Virus record (IMG/VR): IMGVR_UViG_2537561934_000018
Reading direction: 5' to 3' (one strand)
DNA: 9,822 nucleotides
DNA from: a virus
Taxonomy: Duplodnaviria > Heunggongvirae > Uroviricota > Caudoviricetes
Part shown: piece after piece, positions 1 through 8,760 of the stretch
Numbering within the stretch: position 1 is the first letter of the stretch
Layout of the letters: the number at the start of each line of letters is the position of its first letter
The notes under the pieces: model-generated
What the model was told of the DNA's origin: nothing
Database searches by the model: none
Seen by the model: the letters and a program-made list of their open reading frames with translations, nothing else
Made by a program: the position numbers and the translations under genes

Positions 1-960
1 TTACTCCTTGTTCATTGCGTACAGCCCATTAACCAGAGCAAACTGTGGCACCCCGTCCGCGATGAAAGTCGCATTAACTCCGCAGGCTTCGCGGATAGCG
101 GGTGCCACAATCTCCGCCCCGCCACCGACAACCATCACCCGCCCGTAACCCGAAAAAACCGCCAGCGCGCGGATCACGCGTTGTTTCAGTGTTTCTTCCT
201 TTTCACGAATAACCGCCATCAGGCTGGCGTAATGCGCGTCATTGTGGATGTGCTGGCGCAGCCAGGCTTCATCATGGCGATGTTCGATAATGGTATTGGC
301 GATGTGGTGACTGGTGCGCATACCGTTAGTGGCCATCACCGACAGTACGGCATCGGCCATCAGAGAAACGCCTACGTGTGGATCGCAAAACACCTGGCTG
401 ATACCTGCCAGTTGCCCCTGAACCTTTGCCACATCCAGCGTGGTTCCGCCCAAATCCACAATCAGCAGGGATTCAAACGGACTCATGTCAGCCAGTGCCT
501 TAAAGCCAGCCGGAATGGATTCAGGCATAACCCGCACGTTACGGATAGTGAATGCTTCGCCGTTCTGGTACTCCACCGGGCGCATAACGTTCGCTTTTTT
601 GCGGTTGATGTTGGCCATGTCCGGCTGTGCGTTTGTGTCGAAATATTCGCTCAGTGGCAGGGTGACAACCACATCCACTTCCTGTGGTGTGATGCCTGAT
701 TTGACCAGCGCGTGATGAATGGCAATTACATTCACATCGCTGTACTGGTATTGCGTGTCGGTCGTCTGGACAAAGCGATCGCTGACCGGATCAAAACCAT
801 AGCGCACGCCATCAAGCATGTAGTTCGCGGGCTGCGTGCCACCGAACGGCGCAGACCATTCCGACTTGAAGCTGTTTGGGCTGATGGCGTTGCGGCGTTC
901 GCCGTTCTCAGTCCATGCCAGCTTGATGTTGGTGGAGCCGTCATCGATACAAATTTTCAT
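1..960 (-). CDS. ParM/StbA-family actin-like ATPase (319 aa), complete ORF
   Basis: ORF track 1..960; stop TAA is the reverse complement of 1-3 and ATG is at 960-958, preceded by an AAGGAAAAG Shine-Dalgarno. N-terminal IDDGSTNIK motif plus DLGGTT and VVGGGA motifs are typical of actin-fold ATPases. The N-terminal ~110 aa closely resemble plasmid R1 ParM (StbA) as I recall it. The start overlaps the last 20 nt of the upstream A gene. Confidence 0.8.
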   Translation of the reverse strand: MKICIDDGSTNIKLAWTENGERRNAISPNSFKSEWSAPFGGTQPANYMLDGVRYGFDPVSDRFVQTTDTQYQYSDVNVIAIHHALVKSGITPQEVDVVVTLPLSEYFDTNAQPDMANINRKKANVMRPVEYQNGEAFTIRNVRVMPESIPAGFKALADMSPFESLLIVDLGGTTLDVAKVQGQLAGISQVFCDPHVGVSLMADAVLSVMATNGMRTSHHIANTIIEHRHDEAWLRQHIHNDAHYASLMAVIREKEETLKQRVIRALAVFSGYGRVMVVGGGAEIVAPAIREACGVNATFIADGVPQFALVNGLYAMNKE

Positions 961-3859
961 GTCGCTTTTCCTTATGTTGATTAATTAATCGTTTACGGGA
1001 TTCTGAAATCCCGTTTTTGTCCTGTTTTATGCGCGCTTCATATATCGCGGCGCGTTTTTGCTCATTTACGGGATTTGTGAATCCCGTTTCTGTCTGTTTT
1101 TTGTTTCCACTGGTCAGGCCACCCCGCAGCAGGTCTGCTTTGCGGCGGGCGCGTTCAGTGGTTTCACTGATTCTCTGTGCGTGCTCTGCGTCGCGGATGG
1201 CGCGCAGCATGTCAGAAAGCACGGTAACGGGTGTTTTCATGGTGTTCTGGTCTTGCTGAAGTGTGGATGCCAGGCGTGCGGCGGCTTCGGGGTCTGATGT
1301 CCCCAGCTGTTCCAGATAGCTGGCGACCGGGTTATGGCGGATCTCCGTACTGCTTACGCCGTGGTTACGGCTCAGGCGCTGCCAGAGCTGCGTGATCCGG
1401 CTGTCCGGTCGGGTATCCGGTTTGCGTACAATTTCAAATCCCTGCGGTGCAATGTTGCTGCCGTCAACGTACAGACTGCCGCCCCGTAACAGGTGCTGCA
1501 TCTGCTGTTCACCGATATGCAGGCCGAGAGATTCAGCAGACTCCCGCCATTCTTTAGCGAGTAGTTCGTGGTTATCAGGCAAAGGCCGCTGCTGTTTGCG
1601 GCTCTGTGTCCAGCTCTGCATTTCATCACGGCTGTTTTTTGCCTGTTTGTCACGAAGCGAACGCATCAGCGCCCGGCGTTCGTGCCGTTTCAGTGAGCGC
1701 ATCCATTCGTTCACTTCAACGCCGTCAGGGAGCTGCGGCCACGGTGCTGGCCGTTCTTCCGGCTGTTCTGTCCCGTTGTTGTCCGTTTCCTGTACACGGG
1801 GACAGTTATTGCCACGAGTCCAAGGGGCGGCAGGGCCGCCCTGAAGGTCAAAACCATTTTCGCGGGCGCTGTCTTCCGCTTCCGGTTTACGTCTTACCAG
1901 CTTCCAGTTATCCGGATGCGTGCACACGCGGGAAGACTCCCCGATGAGCGGCGACCAGATCCCGTAAATCTGTACGCTCTGTTCGCCGTAATCGTTCAGC
2001 CCATCTGCGAGGTCGTAGGCGGTGCGAATCAGGTAGTCTTTGCGTGGAACAAGTACGCCGCCCTGTTTCTCTATGTAGGTGGCAAAACATCCGGCATCAG
2101 CGGCAGCGAGTACCGCATCCATTGCGTCATCCTTCAGCCGTTGCGGGCCTTCCGGGTTGCGTGCCATCTGGCTGGCAAGGCGGCGCAGCTCACGCCACAC
2201 TTGACGGGAGGGGATGCCAAAGAACTGGAACTGGCGGACGCGGTGAAGGCGTGCCCAGCCGATGGCGCGCTCCACGCTCTCGGCCATTGATTTTCCGGTT
2301 TCGTGGTCAACGCGTGGCTTGCCCGTTTTCGGGTCGATGCCATCCACGGCGTGGCTGTCCAGGTTCTTTCCGATGTAGGTGGCGATGTAGCTGGTTGGCG
2401 TGCCTTTTGAGCCGTCGACGTACTCCGCCTTAAAGCGCGGAGTAATATCATTGCCCAGTTCGTGGCGGTCTTCCTGAATGGCAATATCGCGGGTGTGGGA
2501 CACAATGGTGTCGATTTCTTCCGGATGAGCAAAGACCATCATATGCCAGTGCACGGTGCCGTCATGGTGAGGCTCCACCGTGCGGATGCCATACCAGCGC
2601 AGGCCGTCGCGGTTCAGTTTTTTGCGGACCGCCGCAAAAAACGTGTTAACCAGGTAATCGCTGGAGTCGCGCATGGTGGCCCCGTTCCATTTGGGATTCG
2701 GATGACCGTTCTCTGTTGTGGCGTGGTATTTTGACGGGCAGGTGACAGTCAGAAACACCGCTTTGTCGCCACGGGCTTCGGCCAGAAGTTCCAGTCCCTT
2801 CATGGTGGCCGTCATTTCTGCCTTACGGTGAACCGGGTTACTTACTCCCGCGTAATACACCGTCTCGAGATCAATCGTGAACCCGTCTTCATTTTCCAGC
2901 ATGAAACTTTTCAGGAAATCGCGTGTTTTCTCGCGCTGTGCGCGAAACTCGCTTAACGCGTCCTGGCTCAGATAGGGTGATGTTTTTCTGGAAACCAGAC
3001 AGGCGGCGCGGAGTTGTTCTTCCCGCCACTCACAACGTAACAGCCACAGTTTGCGTTTCCACCAGTCCGCACAGGTCAGGCGAAGGATTGCGCCCGGCAG
3101 CAGTTCCGTGTCCGGTTCGTTCCTCCGGTCTTTGTCTGTTGTCAGTGCGTCATAATGTGGAGGCATGGCGTGCAGGTGTAACGCCATGCGGGCCAGCATC
3201 TGATACGCCTTCAGCGTTACATCCATGGTCAGCTCGCCATCTCTGGCACCGAAACCATCACAGAGAGTCTCAAAGGTGCTGCTGAACATTGCCGCCGTCA
3301 TGGTGGCCAGCGTCTGTATCTGGTGCTTGTTAAGCTGCGGCAGGTAAAGCAAATCGTCCAGGCGTTCGCGTCCGGCAAGGGCGCGATAACCCGGTGTCAG
3401 CCAGCGGCTGTCGGTGCGCTCCAGACGTTCGAATATTTTGCGCAGGGTTCCGTGCGCGTAGCGTTCTGCCTGCCAGCTCTTTTTGCCTTTCCGGCGATCG
3501 ACTTCCTGTTTTTTGCGCAGGAAAGAGAGGTGGCGAATAAGCGGATCGCGCAGATAGGACGGCAGCAGGCGCAGCGAGGCCATGGCTTCATCCACCGCGC
3601 CGCGTGCCTGTTTTCTGGCGTCTCCTGCCAGTGTGATGGTTTTGTCCTGTTTTTCCTGTGCGTCCAGGCTTTTATTAATCAGGTTGCCCAGCGGCGTGGC
3701 GGAGAACGCCGCATCAGCCATTTCCTGGCGGCGCTCGTTCTCTGCCCGGTAGGCATCCAGCCAGGAGGAAAGCGCGGATTCAGGAGCGGGGATCCCCGTT
3801 CCTTCACGCCCCACTGCGTGGCGCGGTTGTTGCCAGTCCCTGATGTACTCCGTTGACAT
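941..3859 (-). CDS. P2 gpA-family rolling-circle replication initiator (HUH endonuclease), 972 aa
   Basis: ORF track 941..3859; ATG at 3859-3857 with a GGAG about 10 nt upstream. HUH-type motif HWHMMVF is encoded at 2531-2551 and the paired-tyrosine motif YIATY at 2375-2389 (verified by reverse-complementing the DNA). This matches the two-tyrosine active site described for phage P2 A protein. Position immediately downstream of the cox-side early genes is as in P2. Confidence 0.8.
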   Translation of the reverse strand: MSTEYIRDWQQPRHAVGREGTGIPAPESALSSWLDAYRAENERRQEMADAAFSATPLGNLINKSLDAQEKQDKTITLAGDARKQARGAVDEAMASLRLLPSYLRDPLIRHLSFLRKKQEVDRRKGKKSWQAERYAHGTLRKIFERLERTDSRWLTPGYRALAGRERLDDLLYLPQLNKHQIQTLATMTAAMFSSTFETLCDGFGARDGELTMDVTLKAYQMLARMALHLHAMPPHYDALTTDKDRRNEPDTELLPGAILRLTCADWWKRKLWLLRCEWREEQLRAACLVSRKTSPYLSQDALSEFRAQREKTRDFLKSFMLENEDGFTIDLETVYYAGVSNPVHRKAEMTATMKGLELLAEARGDKAVFLTVTCPSKYHATTENGHPNPKWNGATMRDSSDYLVNTFFAAVRKKLNRDGLRWYGIRTVEPHHDGTVHWHMMVFAHPEEIDTIVSHTRDIAIQEDRHELGNDITPRFKAEYVDGSKGTPTSYIATYIGKNLDSHAVDGIDPKTGKPRVDHETGKSMAESVERAIGWARLHRVRQFQFFGIPSRQVWRELRRLASQMARNPEGPQRLKDDAMDAVLAAADAGCFATYIEKQGGVLVPRKDYLIRTAYDLADGLNDYGEQSVQIYGIWSPLIGESSRVCTHPDNWKLVRRKPEAEDSARENGFDLQGGPAAPWTRGNNCPRVQETDNNGTEQPEERPAPWPQLPDGVEVNEWMRSLKRHERRALMRSLRDKQAKNSRDEMQSWTQSRKQQRPLPDNHELLAKEWRESAESLGLHIGEQQMQHLLRGGSLYVDGSNIAPQGFEIVRKPDTRPDSRITQLWQRLSRNHGVSSTEIRHNPVASYLEQLGTSDPEAAARLASTLQQDQNTMKTPVTVLSDMLRAIRDAEHAQRISETTERARRKADLLRGGLTSGNKKQTETGFTNPVNEQKRAAIYEARIKQDKNGISESRKRLINQHKEKRHENLYR
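995..1087. repeat. Tandem pair of perfect 8-bp-stem palindromes (ACGGGATT-N4-AATCCCGT) 73 bp apart, flanking a GC-rich palindrome, each followed by a T-run on the + strand
   Basis: Hairpin 1 is 995-1014 (loop CTGA) followed by TTTT to 1018; hairpin 2 is 1068-1087 (loop TGTG) followed by TTTCTGTCTGTTTTTT. Flanking sequence is about 85 percent identical over ~38 bp. A GC-rich palindrome at 1031-1054 is followed by TTTTT (1055-1059). All lie inside the last ~55 codons of the A ORF and 35-130 bp upstream of the ParM-like start. Confidence 0.6.
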
Positions 3860-3865
3860 GCTGAC

Positions 3866-4231
3866 TTACTCCGCTTTGCCGCTCAGTGCGGCGTGGCAGA
3901 CGGCAGCCAGCCGCTGAATTTCCAGCACGGTGTCTTCTGTGTCGGCATGGCGATGTGTGATGCGGGTGCTGTCGGCAATCACATCGACGATTGCAGAGGA
4001 TGGGCGCTGGTAAATGCCAATAACGGACGGGGTGCCACCTTCAATGCGGTAAAGCCTGTAATTTCCCTCGTGGCTGTCAATCATGTAACGACCATCAATA
4101 ACAATCTTTCCGTCAGCGAGCTGCGGTACAGGCAGGGATTTCAGGTACATGTCATAACGATCACGCACGCGAGCGGCAAGATCACGCTCTGTGTTGAGCA
4201 GGTATTCAAGAAAGTCGTTGGCGAGAATCAT
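3866..4231 (-). CDS. Hypothetical protein, 121 aa, immediately upstream of the A gene
   Basis: ORF track 3866..4231; ATG at 4231-4229 with an AGAGGA Shine-Dalgarno ~9 nt upstream. Its stop TAA (3868-3866) lies 7 nt before the A start. Balanced amino-acid composition, unlike the antisense + strand ORF 3893..4396. No motif recognised. Confidence 0.5.
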   Translation of the reverse strand: MILANDFLEYLLNTERDLAARVRDRYDMYLKSLPVPQLADGKIVIDGRYMIDSHEGNYRLYRIEGGTPSVIGIYQRPSSAIVDVIADSTRITHRHADTEDTVLEIQRLAAVCHAALSGKAE

Positions 4232-4303
4232 TGCGGCAATCCTCTTGTTACAGATGTGCGAAGGCCTCCCGCCGCAAGGTGCAGGAAAGGCCTGGTACCG
4301 GAA

Positions 4304-4534
4304 TTAATGGAGTTTGTTTTGCTGCTGGATGAGATCCTGAAGAGACAGGAGGTCTTCCGCCAGATAGCTGAATACAGCGGCGCAGTAGTCGGCTGAAATA
4401 GTGCTGTTGAGTCTGTGCAATGTGTTGGATTGCATGATAAAGGCGATGTGTGCAGCGCGGGTGAGTCTGCGATCGATTTCAGTCTGGATGTGACGACGTG
4501 CAGCGTATGCGCGCTGTTGTTTGCGGTTTGCCAT
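4304..4534 (-). CDS. Hypothetical small protein, 76 aa
   Basis: ORF track 4304..4534; ATG at 4534-4532 with an AGAGG about 9 nt upstream. The Shine-Dalgarno region is part of an 11-bp inverted repeat (see repeat 4544..4635). No motif recognised; coding status uncertain. Confidence 0.4.
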   Translation of the reverse strand: MANRKQQRAYAARRHIQTEIDRRLTRAAHIAFIMQSNTLHRLNSTISADYCAAVFSYLAEDLLSLQDLIQQQNKLH

Positions 4535-4543
4535 GGTGTGGCC

Positions 4544-4635
4544 TCTGTAGTTGCAAGTTTTGAAAACTCACCATCCAGAGGTGGAAAACTCGGGGCGGTG
4601 AGACGTACAGGGTTTCCACAACCGGCAACTACAGA
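4544..4635. repeat. 11-bp perfect inverted repeat (TCTGTAGTTGC at 4544-4554 and GCAACTACAGA at 4625-4635), with a third 9-bp copy CTGTAGTTG at 4740-4748
   Basis: Read directly from the sequence. The proximal arm abuts the Shine-Dalgarno of the 76-aa ORF and the third copy lies inside the loop of the terminator hairpin at 4721-4755. A GC-rich stem-loop with a UUCG loop on the - strand RNA (4640-4659) sits next to the distal arm. Confidence 0.55.
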
Positions 4636-4713
4636 ACCCGGCCCGACCGAAGTCGGCCCCATACGCCCCACCATAATTCTGACGCGAAAAAGACGTGGCG
4701 ATACAGTACGCAC

Positions 4714-4755
4714 AAAAAAACCGCTGGCGCGGTTGTGCGCTGTAGTTGTCAGCGG
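4714..4755 (-). terminator. Candidate rho-independent terminator for the SPFH cassette transcript
   Basis: On the - strand the sequence reads CCGCTG...CAGCGG (4755-4750 and 4726-4721), with an inner ACCGC-GCCA-GCGGT hairpin (4733-4720), followed by seven T (4720-4714). Confidence 0.5.
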
Positions 4756-4870
4756 GGTGGAAATCCCGGCACCCGTTTTATGAGGTGCAGCGGAAATGTA
4801 ACCTGACTGATTGCGGCATGGCAAGCGGTTTTTTTGTGAGAACGGCATACTAAAAAATCCTGATACTGCT

Positions 4871-4895
4871 CCGGCCAGCGGTTTTCACTGGCCGG
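4871..4895. other. GC-rich stem-loop (CCGGCCAG-N9-CTGGCCGG) 7 nt downstream of the SPFH stop codon
   Basis: 8-bp perfect inverted repeat with a 9-nt loop. On the + strand it is followed by AT-rich ATTTAATT; on the - strand a U-run only follows after ~11 nt. Possible bidirectional terminator or mRNA 3' stabiliser. Confidence 0.4.
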
Positions 4896-4901
4896 ATTTA
4901 A

Positions 4902-5732
4902 TTACTTCACGGGAACGAACGGAACAGCGGTGTTACTGGTCATGTATTGCGGCAGCGTGCCGTTCCATTTGTTGATCGCTTCCAGCTCCATAACGCCGGG
5001 ATTCTGGCGCAGAGCTTCGCCGCGTAAACGAATGGCGTCGGCTTCAGCCTGGGCTTTTGTGCGAATGGCATCGGCCTGTCCGGCAGCTTCTGCGCGCAGC
5101 ATGTTGGCTTCAGCTTCGCGTTGCTTGACTTCCTGTTCACGTTGCAGGGTTTTCTGGTTTGCCGTGACTTTGGCGTTAATGCTGTCGATAACGGTTGGCG
5201 GATATTCCGGTTTACCGACATAAGAGAGGCTCATGACCTGAATGCCGATGGGGGTCATCTCTTCCTGAATATCTTTAAGTGCTGAATCCAGCAGTTCAGA
5301 CTTACCACCGTCGATAAACTTATCGGTGGTCATTTTGCTGGCCAGTCGGTTGAGTGCATCGGCGATCTTCTGGCGCAGGTCAGTGTCGGTAATGTCATCC
5401 ACGCCTTTGCGGTAGGTCTGAAACACTGTGGTAACTTTGGATGGATCAACCTTGTAGGCCACACCGATGTGATAGCCGATGGTTGTGCCGTCACTCATCT
5501 GGAAGCTGAACGGCTCATCGTAGGTCTTCATTTGTTTGAAGGTCGGGAAGATGTAAACCTCTGTATTCCAGCCTGTCCAGTAGCGGCCAACGCCAACCAC
5601 TTCACCGACTCCTTTGTCGTCGCCCAGTTTGTTGACTTTGATGCCCACATTACCTGGCTCAACGCGATCGCAACCAACCAGCAGGATGGCGGCAAAAAGC
5701 GGGATAATCTGAAAGAGTCTGAATTTCTTCAT
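4902..5732 (-). CDS. SPFH/Band-7 (stomatin/prohibitin/HflKC-like) domain lipoprotein, 276 aa
   Basis: ORF track 4902..5732; ATG at 5732-5730 overlaps the upstream stop (ATGA), with an AAGGAA Shine-Dalgarno. The N-terminus MKKFRLFQIIPLFAAILLVGC is a lipoprotein signal with lipobox LVGC, followed by Asp at +2. The central region resembles an SPFH domain and the C-terminus is the Ala/Glu/Arg-rich coiled-coil tail typical of HflK/HflC and prohibitins. Fold assignment is by eye. Confidence 0.65.
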   Translation of the reverse strand: MKKFRLFQIIPLFAAILLVGCDRVEPGNVGIKVNKLGDDKGVGEVVGVGRYWTGWNTEVYIFPTFKQMKTYDEPFSFQMSDGTTIGYHIGVAYKVDPSKVTTVFQTYRKGVDDITDTDLRQKIADALNRLASKMTTDKFIDGGKSELLDSALKDIQEEMTPIGIQVMSLSYVGKPEYPPTVIDSINAKVTANQKTLQREQEVKQREAEANMLRAEAAGQADAIRTKAQAEADAIRLRGEALRQNPGVMELEAINKWNGTLPQYMTSNTAVPFVPVK

Positions 5733-7926: not shown

Positions 7927-8352
7927 TTATGCTGCTTTACCGCTGATGTTTCTGTTTCGTCTGCCACTTGTTGGCTTAAACAAAAACAGACGGTTTTCCC
8001 AGTCGTGCCATTCCTGAGGTGCGTTTTCGATGAGGCGATCGCATGCTTCATCCCACGCTTTTCTGTTGATGTAGAGTTCAGCGTTTCCGCCTGGTTTGAG
8101 AGGGTCCGCCATATACACCGCAGGTAGCTTTCCTGCTTTGGCCATGCTTACGATGGCGTCAACGGTCTTTCCGATATACATCGCAAATCCTTCTTTTGAC
8201 AGGAGATGCGAGGGATTTTCTGAAAGTCGAATTTCTTCACGTTCACGTGCTTTGCGTCCTGTTTTTTGATGCTCACCTTCTGGCATTTCTGACAGGTGAT
8301 CGCATCGTGTTCCGCAAAGTGACTCAGGCGCGTTTTGAGTGCTTTCTTGCAT
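7927..8352 (-). CDS. cox: Cox-like excisionase/transcriptional regulator (P2 Cox family); start uncertain
   Basis: The C-terminal ~85 aa (GFAMYIGKTVDAIVSMAKAGKLPAVYMADP...) resemble P2 Cox as I recall it. It is the first gene transcribed divergently from the C repressor. Start chosen at ATG 8352-8350 because of a GGAGG Shine-Dalgarno 7 nt upstream. The track ORF extends to a GTG at 8391, and an ATG at 8181 with an AAGGA Shine-Dalgarno would give an 84-aa product closer to P2 Cox in length. Confidence 0.55.
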   Translation of the reverse strand: MQESTQNAPESLCGTRCDHLSEMPEGEHQKTGRKAREREEIRLSENPSHLLSKEGFAMYIGKTVDAIVSMAKAGKLPAVYMADPLKPGGNAELYINRKAWDEACDRLIENAPQEWHDWENRLFLFKPTSGRRNRNISGKAA

Positions 8353-8423
8353 CTGATATCCTCCGCCATTGGTGCTCTTTCTAATTGGCACTAGTTGGAA
8401 CCACTTAGAACATTTGTTTGCTG

Positions 8424-8466
8424 TTCATATGTGGTGTTAATCTACACATATGTAGGAGTTTGTCAA
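8424..8466 (-). promoter_or_regulatory. Candidate early promoter Pe with two direct-repeat candidate operator half-sites flanking the -10
   Basis: On the - strand, -35 TTGACA is the reverse complement of 8461-8466 and -10 TAGATT is the reverse complement of 8439-8444, with a 16-bp spacer. Direct repeats CATATGT at 8426-8432 and 8447-8453 are 21 bp apart and bracket the -10, like the arrangement I recall for P2 C operators. Not experimentally mapped. Confidence 0.45.
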
Positions 8467-8760
8467 ATGGACATTCCTCAAAAAATTCGCGTCATGCGCA
8501 AATCTGAAGATCTCACTCAGCGGGAATTCGCTGATATGATTGGAATTTCTTATTCTGCTCTGACCAGTTATGAGTATGGTCGTAACCTTCCTGGCCTTGA
8601 GATCACTATCAAGCTTTTCAAGCACCCGAGATTTTCTAAATACCGCGACTGGTTTCTGTTTGATGAAGTTGAACCCAAGGCCGGGCAGGTTGTACCGGCT
8701 CTCGCACACATTGGGCAAGGCGAAGCGGAATCATCCCGCTCCGGCAAGAAGACTGGTTAA
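8467..8760 (+). CDS. C: P2 C-type immunity repressor, 97 aa
   Basis: Start trimmed from track ORF 8395..8760 to ATG 8467, which has a GGAG Shine-Dalgarno 8 nt upstream. The protein (MDIPQKIRVMRKSEDLTQREFADMIGISYSALTSYEYGRN...PALAHIGQGEAESSRSGKKTG) resembles P2 C repressor along its whole length as I recall it. It sits directly upstream of, and co-oriented with, the integrase. Confidence 0.85.
   Translation: MDIPQKIRVMRKSEDLTQREFADMIGISYSALTSYEYGRNLPGLEITIKLFKHPRFSKYRDWFLFDEVEPKAGQVVPALAHIGQGEAESSRSGKKTG

Follow-up and report, generated by a model that had tools for sequence, protein, structure and literature searches.

The window examined in this study is a stretch of 9,822 nucleotides of Caudoviricetes DNA (IMG/VR record IMGVR_UViG_2537561934_000018) from a P2-like prophage of the P88 type (Xuanwuvirus). 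Its gene order is the same as in phage P88, and it also encodes a Cox protein and, where P88 has the gene noted as 'C protein', a helix-turn-helix protein. Within the early operon, an Rfam search, which an earlier note on this DNA had recommended, matched two RNA families in tandem on the minus strand, an isrK-type leader and a C4 RNA, both over their full length and above the curated thresholds. The features of the region are listed below.

4795..4835, minus strand: promoter-like site, with an A7 tract (4835..4829), a -35 hexamer TTGCCA (4824..4819), an 18-nt spacer and a -10 hexamer TACATT (4800..4795)
4714..4788, minus strand: isrK / P4 seqA-type leader RNA (RF01394; 63.6 bits against a threshold of 50; model positions 1-77 of 77)
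4788..4769, minus strand: leader RNA hairpin 1, from the family structure and the fold of the RNA alone
4768..4753, minus strand: leader RNA hairpin 2, followed by a linker
4757..4763, minus strand: J1 box UUUCCAC, in the loop of leader hairpin 2, complementary to J'; 'a1' in the P1 annotation
4740..4748, minus strand: L1 box CAACUACAG, able to pair with the C4 loop; it precedes the terminator, within a linker or small hairpin; 'b1' in P1
4734..4719 (stem) and 4720..4714 (U7), minus strand: intrinsic terminator, from a terminator scan
4591..4678, minus strand: C4 / P4 CI-type antisense RNA (RF01695; 76.8 bits against a threshold of 45; model positions 1-87 of 87; E 4e-14)
4673..4657 with 4612..4596, minus strand: C4 closing stem, 17 bp
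4656..4643, minus strand: C4 UUCG hairpin
4642..4621, minus strand: C4 hairpin 2, with a 12-nt loop
4625..4635, minus strand: L' box UCUGUAGUUGC, in the 12-nt loop of C4 hairpin 2
4613..4619, minus strand: J' box GUGGAAA, in the 8-nt single-stranded junction of C4
4581..4587, minus strand: J2 box UUUCCAC, 4 nt beyond the 3' end of the C4 match, placed as 'a2' in P1
4554..4544, minus strand: L2 box GCAACUACAGA, overlapping the Shine-Dalgarno AGAGG (4546..4542) of the ATG at 4534..4532
4304..4534, minus strand: gene of a 76-aa homologue of P4 epsilon, the first gene past C4
4231..3866, minus strand: gene of a 121-aa protein, distal in the same transcription unit
3859..941, minus strand: gene of the replication initiator gpA (Pfam Phage_GPA, E 1.5e-129)

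The promoter-like site, a 9/12 match to a sigma-70-like consensus in a consensus scan, is a candidate promoter, and the transcription start predicted from it, at ~4788, is the first base of the isrK match. Both hexamers were kept in 57 distinct relatives, while the spacer differs in the divergent ones; where the upstream genes are unrelated, homology starts exactly at the A tract. The surroundings expected of an isrK-type RNA were thus found at both ends, with the predicted promoter directly upstream and a rho-independent terminator at the 3' end. The earlier note had correctly placed a hairpin and a U7 run ending at 4714, but its first motif copy does not lie inside the terminator loop: the terminator is the short hairpin at 4734..4719 followed by U7, and the copy precedes it, in the linker or small hairpin. 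A covariance-model search with c4-a1b1 (RF03163), the family of the corresponding element of P1, gave no match in 4200-5000 even at E <= 1, and the upstream element was therefore filed under isrK only. By their complementarity, the upstream boxes of the window would nevertheless do the same job as c4-a1b1.

The C4 RNA exhibits the architecture of its family, a long closing stem around two hairpins, with one box in the loop of hairpin 2 and the other in the junction. The minimum-energy fold of the 88-mer equals the Rfam structure in energy (-42.1 kcal/mol), and the UUCG hairpin undergoes compensatory changes in relatives, such as CCAGC-AUCA-GCUGG. The stem-loops noted earlier at 4871-4895 and, with the UUCG loop, at 4659..4640 on the minus strand are both present. 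The 5' end of C4 RNAs is cut by RNase P; by homology, the C4 RNA of the window is probably excised from a precursor and active in trans. The downstream target of a C4 RNA was also found, J2 lying 4 nt past C4 and L2 over the AGAGG at the ribosome-binding site of the next gene.

With regard to this next gene, the 76-aa protein showed 33% identity to P4 epsilon over 51 aa (E 7e-9 in BLASTP, as a single comparison), fell in phrog_3688, and scored 22.3 bits against Pfam PF25738, under the threshold of 27. The homology is real but weak, and the protein appears to be antirepressor-like, resembling P4 epsilon. The P4 E protein is a 'derepression' protein, an antirepressor of the P2 C repressor (PMC2995052). 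The 121-aa protein showed no similarity to P4 ORF151 in a direct comparison. An Icd-like first gene is absent, the 76-aa and 121-aa proteins matching no NCBIfam model, and profile searches of the proteins encoded downstream of C4 yielded no Icd or Ant homologue.

Pairing and covariation of the boxes

The earlier note had described three copies of one motif on the minus strand, CAACTACAG at 4748..4740, the middle copy TCTGTAGTTGC at 4635..4625, and GCAACTACAGA at 4554..4544 followed by GGCCACACC and the ATG at 4534, and all these positions were found to be exact. These repeats are not random. Three copies of the 9-mer core lie in the window, spread over no more than 204 nt, where 0.06 would be expected; this chance level was obtained from 200 shuffles of the window, none of which reached three copies. 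Box triples are about 50 times commoner in the window than expected by chance. A second triple, of 7 nt, had been overlooked and completes the layout that is annotated in phage P1.

The middle element is complementary to both flanking copies, as had been proposed, and lies within the 12-nt loop of a C4-family antisense RNA (Rfam RF01695). Copy three does overlap the Shine-Dalgarno of the 76-aa gene, and control through access to the ribosome-binding site is therefore indicated. The initial idea of an attenuation or sequestering element thus stands as far as control by a non-coding RNA at the ribosome-binding site is concerned, but not in its picture of the middle element as a simple attenuator strand. 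The L':L2 duplex (11 bp) was predicted at -21.0 kcal/mol, compared with -10.6 +/- 2.4 kcal/mol when L' was shuffled, and the L':L1 duplex (9 bp) at -15.6 kcal/mol.

Both pairings were upheld by double changes among 88 distinct related modules, to a degree far exceeding slid and shuffled controls, which bears out the suspicion that the repeats pair with one another. The pairing with the upstream copy was 95.4% paired and double changes were observed at 13 of the 16 pairs, the paired fraction dropping to 27-50% once the partner was slid. The same 95.4% was obtained for J1:J' and for L1:L', with double changes at 6/7 and 7/9 pairs, respectively. The pairing with the ribosome-binding-site copy reached 79.5%, with double changes at 12/18 pairs and a slid control of 37-50%; J2 and L2 each covary with J' and L', respectively. 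The compensated positions include G:U and U:G pairs.

Across 88 to 120 modules, the scaffold hardly varies, whereas both boxes are hypervariable and their three copies change in concert. The 120 distinct modules comprise 20 types of loop box and 10 types of junction box in 31 combinations. With a module's own loop box, an upstream duplex of 8 bp or more is formed in 93% of modules and one at the ribosome-binding site in 99%, whereas loop boxes of another type reach such a duplex in 12-14%. As only the boxes vary among relatives, each combination of boxes may represent one immunity specificity. Mismatched boxes were found in a few relatives (L018, L076 and L002), and the system therefore tolerates recombination or is at times broken by it. 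When modules reside in the same genome, none of 10 scored pairs, nor a further pair read by eye, shares both boxes; random pairs do so in 7% of cases, and this comparison has no statistical power. A similarity search located the block in prophages of 1309 of the 5426 complete E. coli genomes, and a 22-mer of the scaffold was present at 9 loci in species-representative genomes, which is too few for statistics.

Known systems and the proposed mode of control

The region is very probably an RNA immunity module of the IsrK-C4 type in the early operon of a P2-like prophage. Its structure is not new in kind, since a C4 antisense RNA, a copy of its target in the leader and a target on the ribosome-binding site are already known in combination. 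In the Rfam search, the tandem of isrK and C4 was also found in P4, N15, an Stx2 phage, Salmonella phage 118970_sal3 and Gifsy-1. A search of the literature on seqB/seqC and on C4 in P2-like phages returned nothing relevant.

Close parallels exist with P4, which carries isrK (60.8 bits) and C4 (74.9 bits) in the same order as the window. The box geometry is also the same: one box is carried in the loop of hairpin 2 and another in the linker, a U7 terminator follows, and then come the loop and junction of the CI RNA; reading the P4 sequence directly, we observed that the second box copy abuts GGAGG and the ATG. The epsilon gene and a replication gene follow the RNAs in P4 as well, and in both cases the RNA region was historically taken for a protein gene. 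In P4, the CI RNA pairs with seqA and seqC, causing termination (Hershko-Shalev 2016). Several differences are observed. P4 is a satellite with the alpha primase, whereas the window belongs to a complete P2-like phage with gpA, a rolling-circle initiator. P4 has an Icd-like kil gene between C4 and epsilon, as the first ORF, which matches NF033153 (76 bits), and the window has no kil. The gap between leader and C4 is 35 nt in the window and 107 nt in P4, the epsilon-like protein has 76 aa compared with 95 aa for P4 epsilon, and the module is not at the start of the operon but midway along the Cox-side early operon. Compared with a P4-type operon as a whole, the tandem RNAs are present, the match to epsilon is weak, and the replication gene is that of gpA and not alpha.

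The immI region of P1/P7 consists of the promoters P51a/b, a1 and b1, c4, a2 and b2, icd and ant, and the layout of the window is identical to it within a few nucleotides. The P1 record annotates the promoters, a1, b1, c4, a2 at 4 nt past c4, and b2 by the start of icd, and notes 'repression of icd ant translation'. The C4 family is matched in P1 as well (68.8 bits), and the logic of an antisense RNA holding down an antirepressor would be shared; the heteroimmunity of P1 and P7 rests on differences in c4, according to a review. In contrast to the window, the upstream element of P1 matches c4-a1b1 (RF03163) and not isrK, Gifsy-1 matching RF03163 too. The genes controlled in P1, icd and ant, are both absent from the window, and none of the C1 operator that lies on the P1 promoter is evident there. 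N15 carries the tandem of isrK (62.4 bits) and C4 (78.8 bits) in its immA region, where an annotated rho-independent terminator ends the leader. It differs in being a linear-plasmid prophage and in its cargo, the icd and ant genes (antA/antB). The title of Ravin 1999 describes the N15 antirepressor as controlled by a small processed RNA. Gifsy-1 (isrK - orf45/STnc1160 - anrP) shares with the window the tandem of isrK and C4, the promoter geometry upstream of isrK and a box copy at the GGAGG of its first gene, whereas it is a lambdoid phage and its cargo is a 187-aa antirepressor.

Taking these parallels together with the pairing data, the likeliest role is, on our best reading, a type-specific RNA immunity that would block translation of the antirepressor-like gene and, by polarity, the expression of the replication genes. 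Transcription would start at ~4788 from the promoter at ~4824..4795, and the intrinsic terminator (4734..4714) would stop most transcripts, giving a 75-nt leader RNA that shows J1 and L1. Read-through transcripts would hold C4 (4678..4591), which by homology would be excised as a stable small RNA, and its L' and J' could then pair with L2 and J2 in the mRNA leader. The L':L2 duplex would mask the 5' half of the Shine-Dalgarno, so that translation of the 76-aa epsilon-like gene would be blocked, and the untranslated gene would lower the expression of the 121-aa gene and gpA through polarity. These two genes are presumed to be under the control of the module, via polarity or coupling. J1 and L1 may constitute a second C4 binding site, which could let C4 enhance termination and limit its own synthesis. 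In P4, the C4-type RNA does enhance termination at the upstream site and limits its own synthesis.

Alternatively, the short leader RNA could titrate C4 and turn translation on. The upstream copy would then serve mainly for positive control, the IsrK-like RNA pairing with L' and J' of C4 and freeing the ribosome-binding site of the epsilon-like gene. This is a distinct possibility, which we hold tentatively; it is compatible with the immunity module described above and concerns only the purpose of the first copy. Such a switch has been shown for Gifsy-1, whose isrK and C4 are arranged alike: IsrK acts in trans to activate translation of the downstream genes, raising that of anrP more than 100-fold, with compensatory mutations (Hershko-Shalev 2016). 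When the short RNA of the window is folded by prediction, L1 and J1 are exposed in loop or linker positions, and they covary with L' and J' more cleanly than does the copy at the ribosome-binding site. Nevertheless, L1 would be the weaker competitor, as its duplex with L' is shorter than that of L2 (9 bp and -15.6 kcal/mol, compared with 11 bp and -21.0 kcal/mol). The equivalent P4 site, moreover, is said to serve CI-dependent termination at terminator t1, and with it CI autoregulation, as Briani et al. reportedly described in 2000.

A purely cis-acting switch, in which the middle element toggles between the upstream copy and the copy at the ribosome-binding site within one transcript and no trans-acting RNA exists, appears quite improbable. 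Folding of the leader, one of the checks proposed earlier, does favor it, as the minimum-energy fold of the full 269-nt leader pairs L' and J' with L2 and J2 in cis (z = -3.8), and the long transcript of Gifsy-1 is translationally inactive through internal structure (Hershko-Shalev 2016). However, the middle element forms part of a C4-family RNA, and the scaffold of this RNA hardly varies among relatives, as would be anticipated for an RNA that has to fold and be processed independently. According to the literature, the P4 CI RNA and the N15 RNA are small RNAs processed from a primary transcript, and c4 and CI regulate their target sites as antisense RNAs; the equivalent region of Gifsy-1 yields a stable processed species of ~80 nt (Hershko-Shalev 2016).

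Reading frames across the RNA genes

The earlier note had seen no convincing coding frame in this region. A coding signature is indeed absent, but most relatives keep the frame of ORF 4848..4228 open, with no stop codon in 76 of the 79. It is highly improbable that the region encodes a 206-aa protein of the 'Ash family' or 'transcriptional regulator' kind in this ORF, even though its translation has matches to Pfam PF10554 Phage_ASH (26.9 bits, threshold 26) and to PHROG families called 'transcriptional regulator'. Substitutions are spread evenly over the codon positions (1286/1287/1199) and amino-acid identity is equal in all three frames. Given these substitutions without a codon signature, the 'Ash' gene was rejected as a conserved protein. 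The stretch matched by Phage_ASH is exactly that of the two RNA genes, and the first 20 codons of the ORF lie upstream of the predicted transcription start. PF10554 also matches the obsolete P4 'cI protein' ORF, although in the literature the immunity factor of P4 is a processed RNA. Part of ORF 4848..4228 may nonetheless be translated, not as a conserved protein but as the following leader ORF.

4228..4674, minus strand: candidate leader ORF of 148 codons, opening with a conserved AUG on the 5' side of the C4 closing stem

This ORF crosses C4, the leader and, in the +1 frame, the entire 76-aa gene, and ends in ATGA upon the start codon of the 121-aa gene; a second AUG in its frame lies 12 nt downstream of the first. 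The +1 frame is open in all 68 distinct epsilon-like genes, the chance of which is 0.12-0.35 per representative by synonymous-codon resampling. With only 3-4 leucine sites at risk, the open frame over the epsilon-like gene is suggestive only. The Gifsy-1 equivalent of the leader ORF is the published orf45, whose link to the C4 family comes from the Rfam search and sequence reading performed here and is absent from the Gifsy-1 paper. Gifsy-1 likewise has an ORF that starts from AUUAUGG in the 5' strand of C4, has a second AUG 12 nt on, and ends in AUGA on the downstream gene. In Gifsy-1 the ORF is 45 codons long and ends on the first gene; in the window it is 148 codons long, overlapping the first gene and stopping only at the second. 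The N15 ORF that begins with the C4 AUG bears the annotation gp32, and its terminal ATGA falls on gene 31.

A plus-strand antisense small RNA, suggested at 4809-4835 on account of a hairpin followed by T7, is barely credible. A T7 run does follow a possible stem, but this stem has only 4 bp, the terminator scan gave no call, and the Rfam search found no match on the plus strand. The partner strand of the stem falls within the promoter spacer, where divergent relatives have other sequence, and they retain the A tract and the -35 hexamer. As its hairpin is weak and unconserved, and its sequence is that of the A7 tract and -35 hexamer of the promoter-like site of the minus-strand module, this RNA was rejected. 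Finally, the notion that the 11-bp inverted repeat, 81 bp centre to centre, forms DNA operators for a looping regulator protein can virtually be dismissed, as the compensated G:U and U:G pairs preserve RNA pairing and not DNA symmetry, two independent boxes occur three times each in the strand arrangement that antiparallel RNA pairing requires, both RNAs have matches among curated RNA families, and the known mechanism in relatives is RNA-based.

Meaning for P2-like prophages and their satellites

The identification of an immunity module of the IsrK-C4 type explains a conserved 'intergenic' block, which in the records examined is annotated as a hypothetical protein or as one of the 'Ash family'. 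Since they match the translation of these RNA genes, Pfam Phage_ASH and several PHROG families are likely to be spurious protein families. A P2-like branch and the satellite P4 share an RNA immunity cassette together with an epsilon-like antirepressor gene, and this bears on the relation between the regulation of helper and satellite. The boxes, covarying three ways on a fixed scaffold, constitute natural orthogonal pairs of RNA regulator and target.

We also considered whether, in P88-type prophages, the module exceeds classical immunity and combines a combinatorial RNA 'barcode' with a ribosome 'bridge' formed by the leader ORF, which we regard as speculative and rather unlikely. If this were true, at least 31 combinations of loop box and junction box on one scaffold would set which co-resident or incoming P2-like phages, and which P4-like satellites that use this same scaffold, express their antirepressor and replication genes, and would form an RNA layer of compatibility between helper and satellite and between phages. 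The 148-codon leader ORF would in that case couple the unfolding of C4 to the translation of the 121-aa gene and gpA, extending the coupling by the 45-codon orf45 shown in Gifsy-1. With regard to the immunity module itself, if it controls gpA and the antirepressor, box type should predict superinfection immunity, and perhaps the inducibility, of these common prophages.

RNAs between the SPFH and 76-aa genes

This analysis revealed that the gap ahead of the 76-aa gene, an epsilon-like gene, holds two RNAs of known families. The earlier note had described a structured non-coding region there from first principles and had proposed an Rfam search; each sequence element lies where it was placed, and the module proves to be a known kind of system in an uncharacterised setting. 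Across the whole window, Rfam returned exactly two matches, both in the gap, on the minus strand, full length and above threshold; the c4-a1b1 model had no match in the window. The window corresponds to the early part of a P2-like prophage, in which the genes around the module are all on the minus strand. Over 801 nt around the module, identity is 91.5% with Escherichia phage P88 (Peduoviridae, Xuanwuvirus) and as much as 94.7% with E. coli chromosomal prophages; 1309 of 5426 complete E. coli genomes contain a match.

Features of the window around the RNA module
8395..8760, plus: helix-turn-helix protein, at the same position as the P88 gene noted 'C protein'
plus: ORF at the position of the P88 integrase gene
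8391..7927, minus: Cox
between Cox and the SPFH gene, minus: several small genes
5732..4902, minus: SPFH protein gene
between the SPFH and 76-aa genes: gap of 367 nt holding the RNA module
upstream of the module, minus: promoter-like site (TTGCCA, 18 nt, TACATT)
4788..4714, minus: isrK leader RNA (RF01394; 63.6 bits, threshold 50)
4763..4757, minus: box J1, UUUCCAC
4748..4740, minus: box L1
4678..4591, minus: C4 antisense RNA (RF01695; 76.8 bits, threshold 45)
4635..4625, minus: box L', in the C4 loop
4619..4613, minus: box J', GUGGAAA, complement of J1 and J2
4587..4581, minus: box J2, UUUCCAC, 4 nt after C4
4554..4544, minus: box L2, on the Shine-Dalgarno sequence
4534..4304, minus: 76-aa gene
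4231..3866, minus: 121-aa gene
3859..941, minus: replication initiator gpA
960..1, minus: ParM

In the alignment with the C4 model, L' occupies the 12-nt loop of the second hairpin and J' the 8-nt single-stranded junction; a stem-loop with a UUCG loop, noted earlier, is the first C4 hairpin. Folded alone, the C4 88-mer has a minimum-energy structure of -42.1 kcal/mol, equal to the family structure. Within the isrK match, the second hairpin has J1 as its loop and the linker holds L1, and the terminator consists of the 3' hairpin (4734..4719) with its U7 run; this terminator had been recognised before, but with the first motif copy in its loop, whereas the copy lies 5' of it.

The promoter-like site would start transcription near 4788, just where the isrK match begins. 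In loci with different upstream genes, the shared sequence begins exactly at the A tract that immediately precedes the -35 hexamer, and the module's left edge is placed there; divergent loci have an altered spacer and keep both hexamers. On the plus strand this A tract is the T7 run that had been read, with a hairpin, as a sign of a possible antisense small RNA; we rejected this reading because the stem has only 4 bp and the terminator scan did not call it. Together with its 10-bp stem-loop (4895..4871), the SPFH gene makes up a block of variable cargo (window 4836..5732), in whose place relatives have unrelated genes; from the A tract onward the loci are homologous again. Since its U run comes only 13 nt later, this stem-loop is not a canonical terminator.

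Pairing of the L and J boxes

The motif of the earlier note is here called the L box and a second motif the J box, each named for its middle copy, in the loop and in the junction; the P1 annotation calls them b and a, respectively. The concern that the repeat arose by chance is answered by the 9-mer CAACTACAG, which occurs three times in the window, always within 4545-4748, against 0.06 expected, and three times in 0 of 200 shuffles.

Modules were gathered from 80 loci encoding a relative of the 76-aa protein and from 120 more found through a conserved C4 22-mer. Their scaffold is almost invariant and both boxes are hypervariable, changing together in all three copies: 120 distinct modules comprise 20 L types and 10 J types in 31 combinations. 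In 93% of modules the module's own L' can form an uninterrupted duplex of 8 bp or more in its leader RNA, and in 99% at its ribosome-binding site, against 12-14% with modules of another type. Among 88 distinct modules, pairing stands at 95.4% for the L1:L' and J1:J' positions, and 13 of the 16 pairs show double changes (365 cells); sliding the partner by 1-3 columns gives 27-50%, and 0 of 500 shuffles reached the observed score. The L':L2 and J':J2 positions are 79.5% paired (slid, 37-50%), with double changes at 12 of 18 pairs, a value depressed by a few poorly aligning divergent modules and by two terminal pairs that only the window's type has. The claim that the middle element can pair with either flank is thus borne out far above slid and shuffled controls, and extends to a J box triple that had been missed. 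The alternative of a DNA looping operator is rejected, as the compensated positions include G:U and U:G pairs, which indicate RNA pairing rather than a symmetric operator. Judged from these comparisons, the module is real and functional.

Three IMG/VR loci carry mismatched boxes and are probably recombinants. L018 combines a C4 loop box of the window's type with two target copies of another type; L076 has upstream boxes that differ in type from C4 and the copy at the ribosome-binding site; and L002 has only J1 changed. If active, these modules would be derepressed or deregulated. Four loci with an Icd-like first gene, as in P4 (L100, L140, L189 and L200), have the antisense junction box AUUUCCAC and GUGGAAA targets. 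This mirrors the window's type (4613..4619), so that the two antisense RNAs would be mutually complementary over 7 nt, which could be chance in a small sequence space. Exact matches to the 22-nt C4 scaffold in genome contigs labelled Verrucomicrobiota MAG, Micromonospora and Vagococcus (L208, L209, L212), far outside Enterobacterales, could reflect contamination or transfer.

Proposed control and reading frames

Beyond the sequence features, family matches, folds, covariation and gene context, which were observed directly, we infer the mechanism from the homologous systems of P1, P4, N15 and Gifsy-1. Transcription from the module promoter would mostly stop at the terminator, giving a 75-nt leader RNA, and read-through transcripts would carry C4, which would be excised as a stable RNA whose L' and J' pair with L2 and J2. 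The 11-bp L':L2 duplex has a predicted energy of -21.0 kcal/mol, against -10.6 +/- 2.4 for shuffled L', and overlaps AGAGG in its first three bases, 7 nt before the ATG, so that initiation on the 76-aa gene would be blocked. The untranslated mRNA would be expected to terminate or decay before the 121-aa gene and gpA, as described for P1 icd-ant. In the unprocessed transcript, the same pairing is predicted to form also in cis. In P4, CI RNA bound at seqA reportedly enhances termination at t1, limiting its own synthesis. In Gifsy-1, a short RNA acting in trans opens the long transcript and raises translation more than 100-fold (Hershko-Shalev et al. 2016). In the window the upstream copy may serve activation, autoregulation or both, these roles not being exclusive.

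The 76-aa protein shares 33% identity with P4 epsilon over 51 residues (E 7e-9, single comparison) and scores 22.3 bits against Pfam 'Derepression', below the threshold of 27. P4 E, an antirepressor, binds the P2 C repressor (PMC2995052), and at the P2-like switch position the window carries cox together with a repressor-like gene. The control logic would be that of P1 immI, an antisense RNA restraining an antirepressor, with a replication gene further along the same transcript, as in P4. Elsewhere the same scaffold carries Icd-like proteins or 185-201-aa proteins, a relative of which in phage sal3 is annotated as antirepressor; this varied cargo fits a portable control cassette for antirepressor-type genes. 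Separately, a hairpin between the 76-aa and 121-aa genes (4263..4292, minus strand; GGCCUUUCC...GGGAGGCC) is kept by compensatory changes (GGAAGC...GCUUCC) in other locus types, with GCGGGAGGC conserved in its 3' arm; it has no Rfam match.

An AUG in the 5' strand of the C4 closing stem (4674..4672, AUUAUGG; ATGG invariant in 88/88 modules) opens a 148-codon frame (4228..4674, minus) that runs through C4, the leader and, in the +1 frame, the whole 76-aa gene, ending in ATGA on the 121-aa gene start. Of 99 distinct loci, 77 share this layout, and their downstream genes are of two kinds; where a third kind follows, the frame mostly runs to about 10 nt beyond the next start, and in a few loci it ends in ATGA. 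The same frame is orf45 of Gifsy-1 (45 codons, the same two AUGs 12 nt apart, AUGA on anrP), whose translation is needed for anrP expression (Hershko-Shalev et al. 2016). The N15 frame is annotated gp32, and its terminal ATGA lies on gene 31; the frame is in phase with the cargo gene in P4, sal3 and others, and only 14 codons long in P1. All 68 distinct epsilon-like genes have an open +1 frame, which is only suggestive of a frame kept open on purpose.

The 206-aa ORF (4228..4848, minus) matches Pfam Phage_ASH PF10554 (26.9 bits, threshold 26). A conserved protein was rejected, as substitutions show no preference for any codon position and the three frames do not differ in amino-acid identity. 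When translated, the isrK and C4 RNA genes are hit by PHROGs 995, 821 and 6928 ('transcriptional regulator'), and Phage_ASH also matches the obsolete P4 'cI protein' ORF, still annotated in RefSeq as a transcriptional repressor. These families are, at least partly, translations of RNA genes and look spurious to that extent. The observation concerns L083 (8168-8584) as well as the window.

Known systems and the P2-like setting

Matches of the same Rfam search in reference phage genomes
P4: isrK 8692..8615; C4 8507..8420
N15: isrK; C4
Stx2 phage F004: isrK; C4
Salmonella phage 118970_sal3: isrK; C4
Gifsy-1: isrK, overlapped by a c4-a1b1 match; C4
P1: c4-a1b1 (RF03163); C4

The P4 matches span the region known in the literature as seqA leader and CI RNA, and P4 has the same design, including a box copy abutting GGAGG and ATG. 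The P1 record gives two promoters, then a1, b1 and c4, with a2 4 nt after c4 and b2 adjoining the icd start ('repression of icd ant translation'); the spacing of J2 and the site of L2 in the window are alike. The relationship between these RNAs is already in the literature (Barquist et al.; Hershko-Shalev et al. 2016; Weinberg et al. 2010): IsrK is a structural homologue of seqA, and CI RNA pairs with seqA and seqC to cause premature termination (Hershko-Shalev et al. 2016), and 'c4 antisense RNA' and 'c4-a1b1' are both listed (Weinberg et al. 2010).

P88 was obtained after mitomycin C treatment, which shows only that such prophages can be released. A ParM gene follows gpA in the window (1..960) and in L001 (1486-2761), in an integrase-carrying P2-like phage, and in P88 a 'partition protein' gene adjoins the ParM gene; a plasmid-type segregation system is unusual cargo for P2-like phages.

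The window differs from the known systems in its host element, a complete P2-like phage, in having gpA as the replication gene, and in lacking both an Icd-like first gene and a c4-a1b1 match. The new point is this P2-like setting, in which the literature search gave no description of the module. In contrast to the known systems, the module sits midway along the Cox-side operon, and early transcripts therefore have to pass both the leader terminator and the C4 target before they reach gpA.
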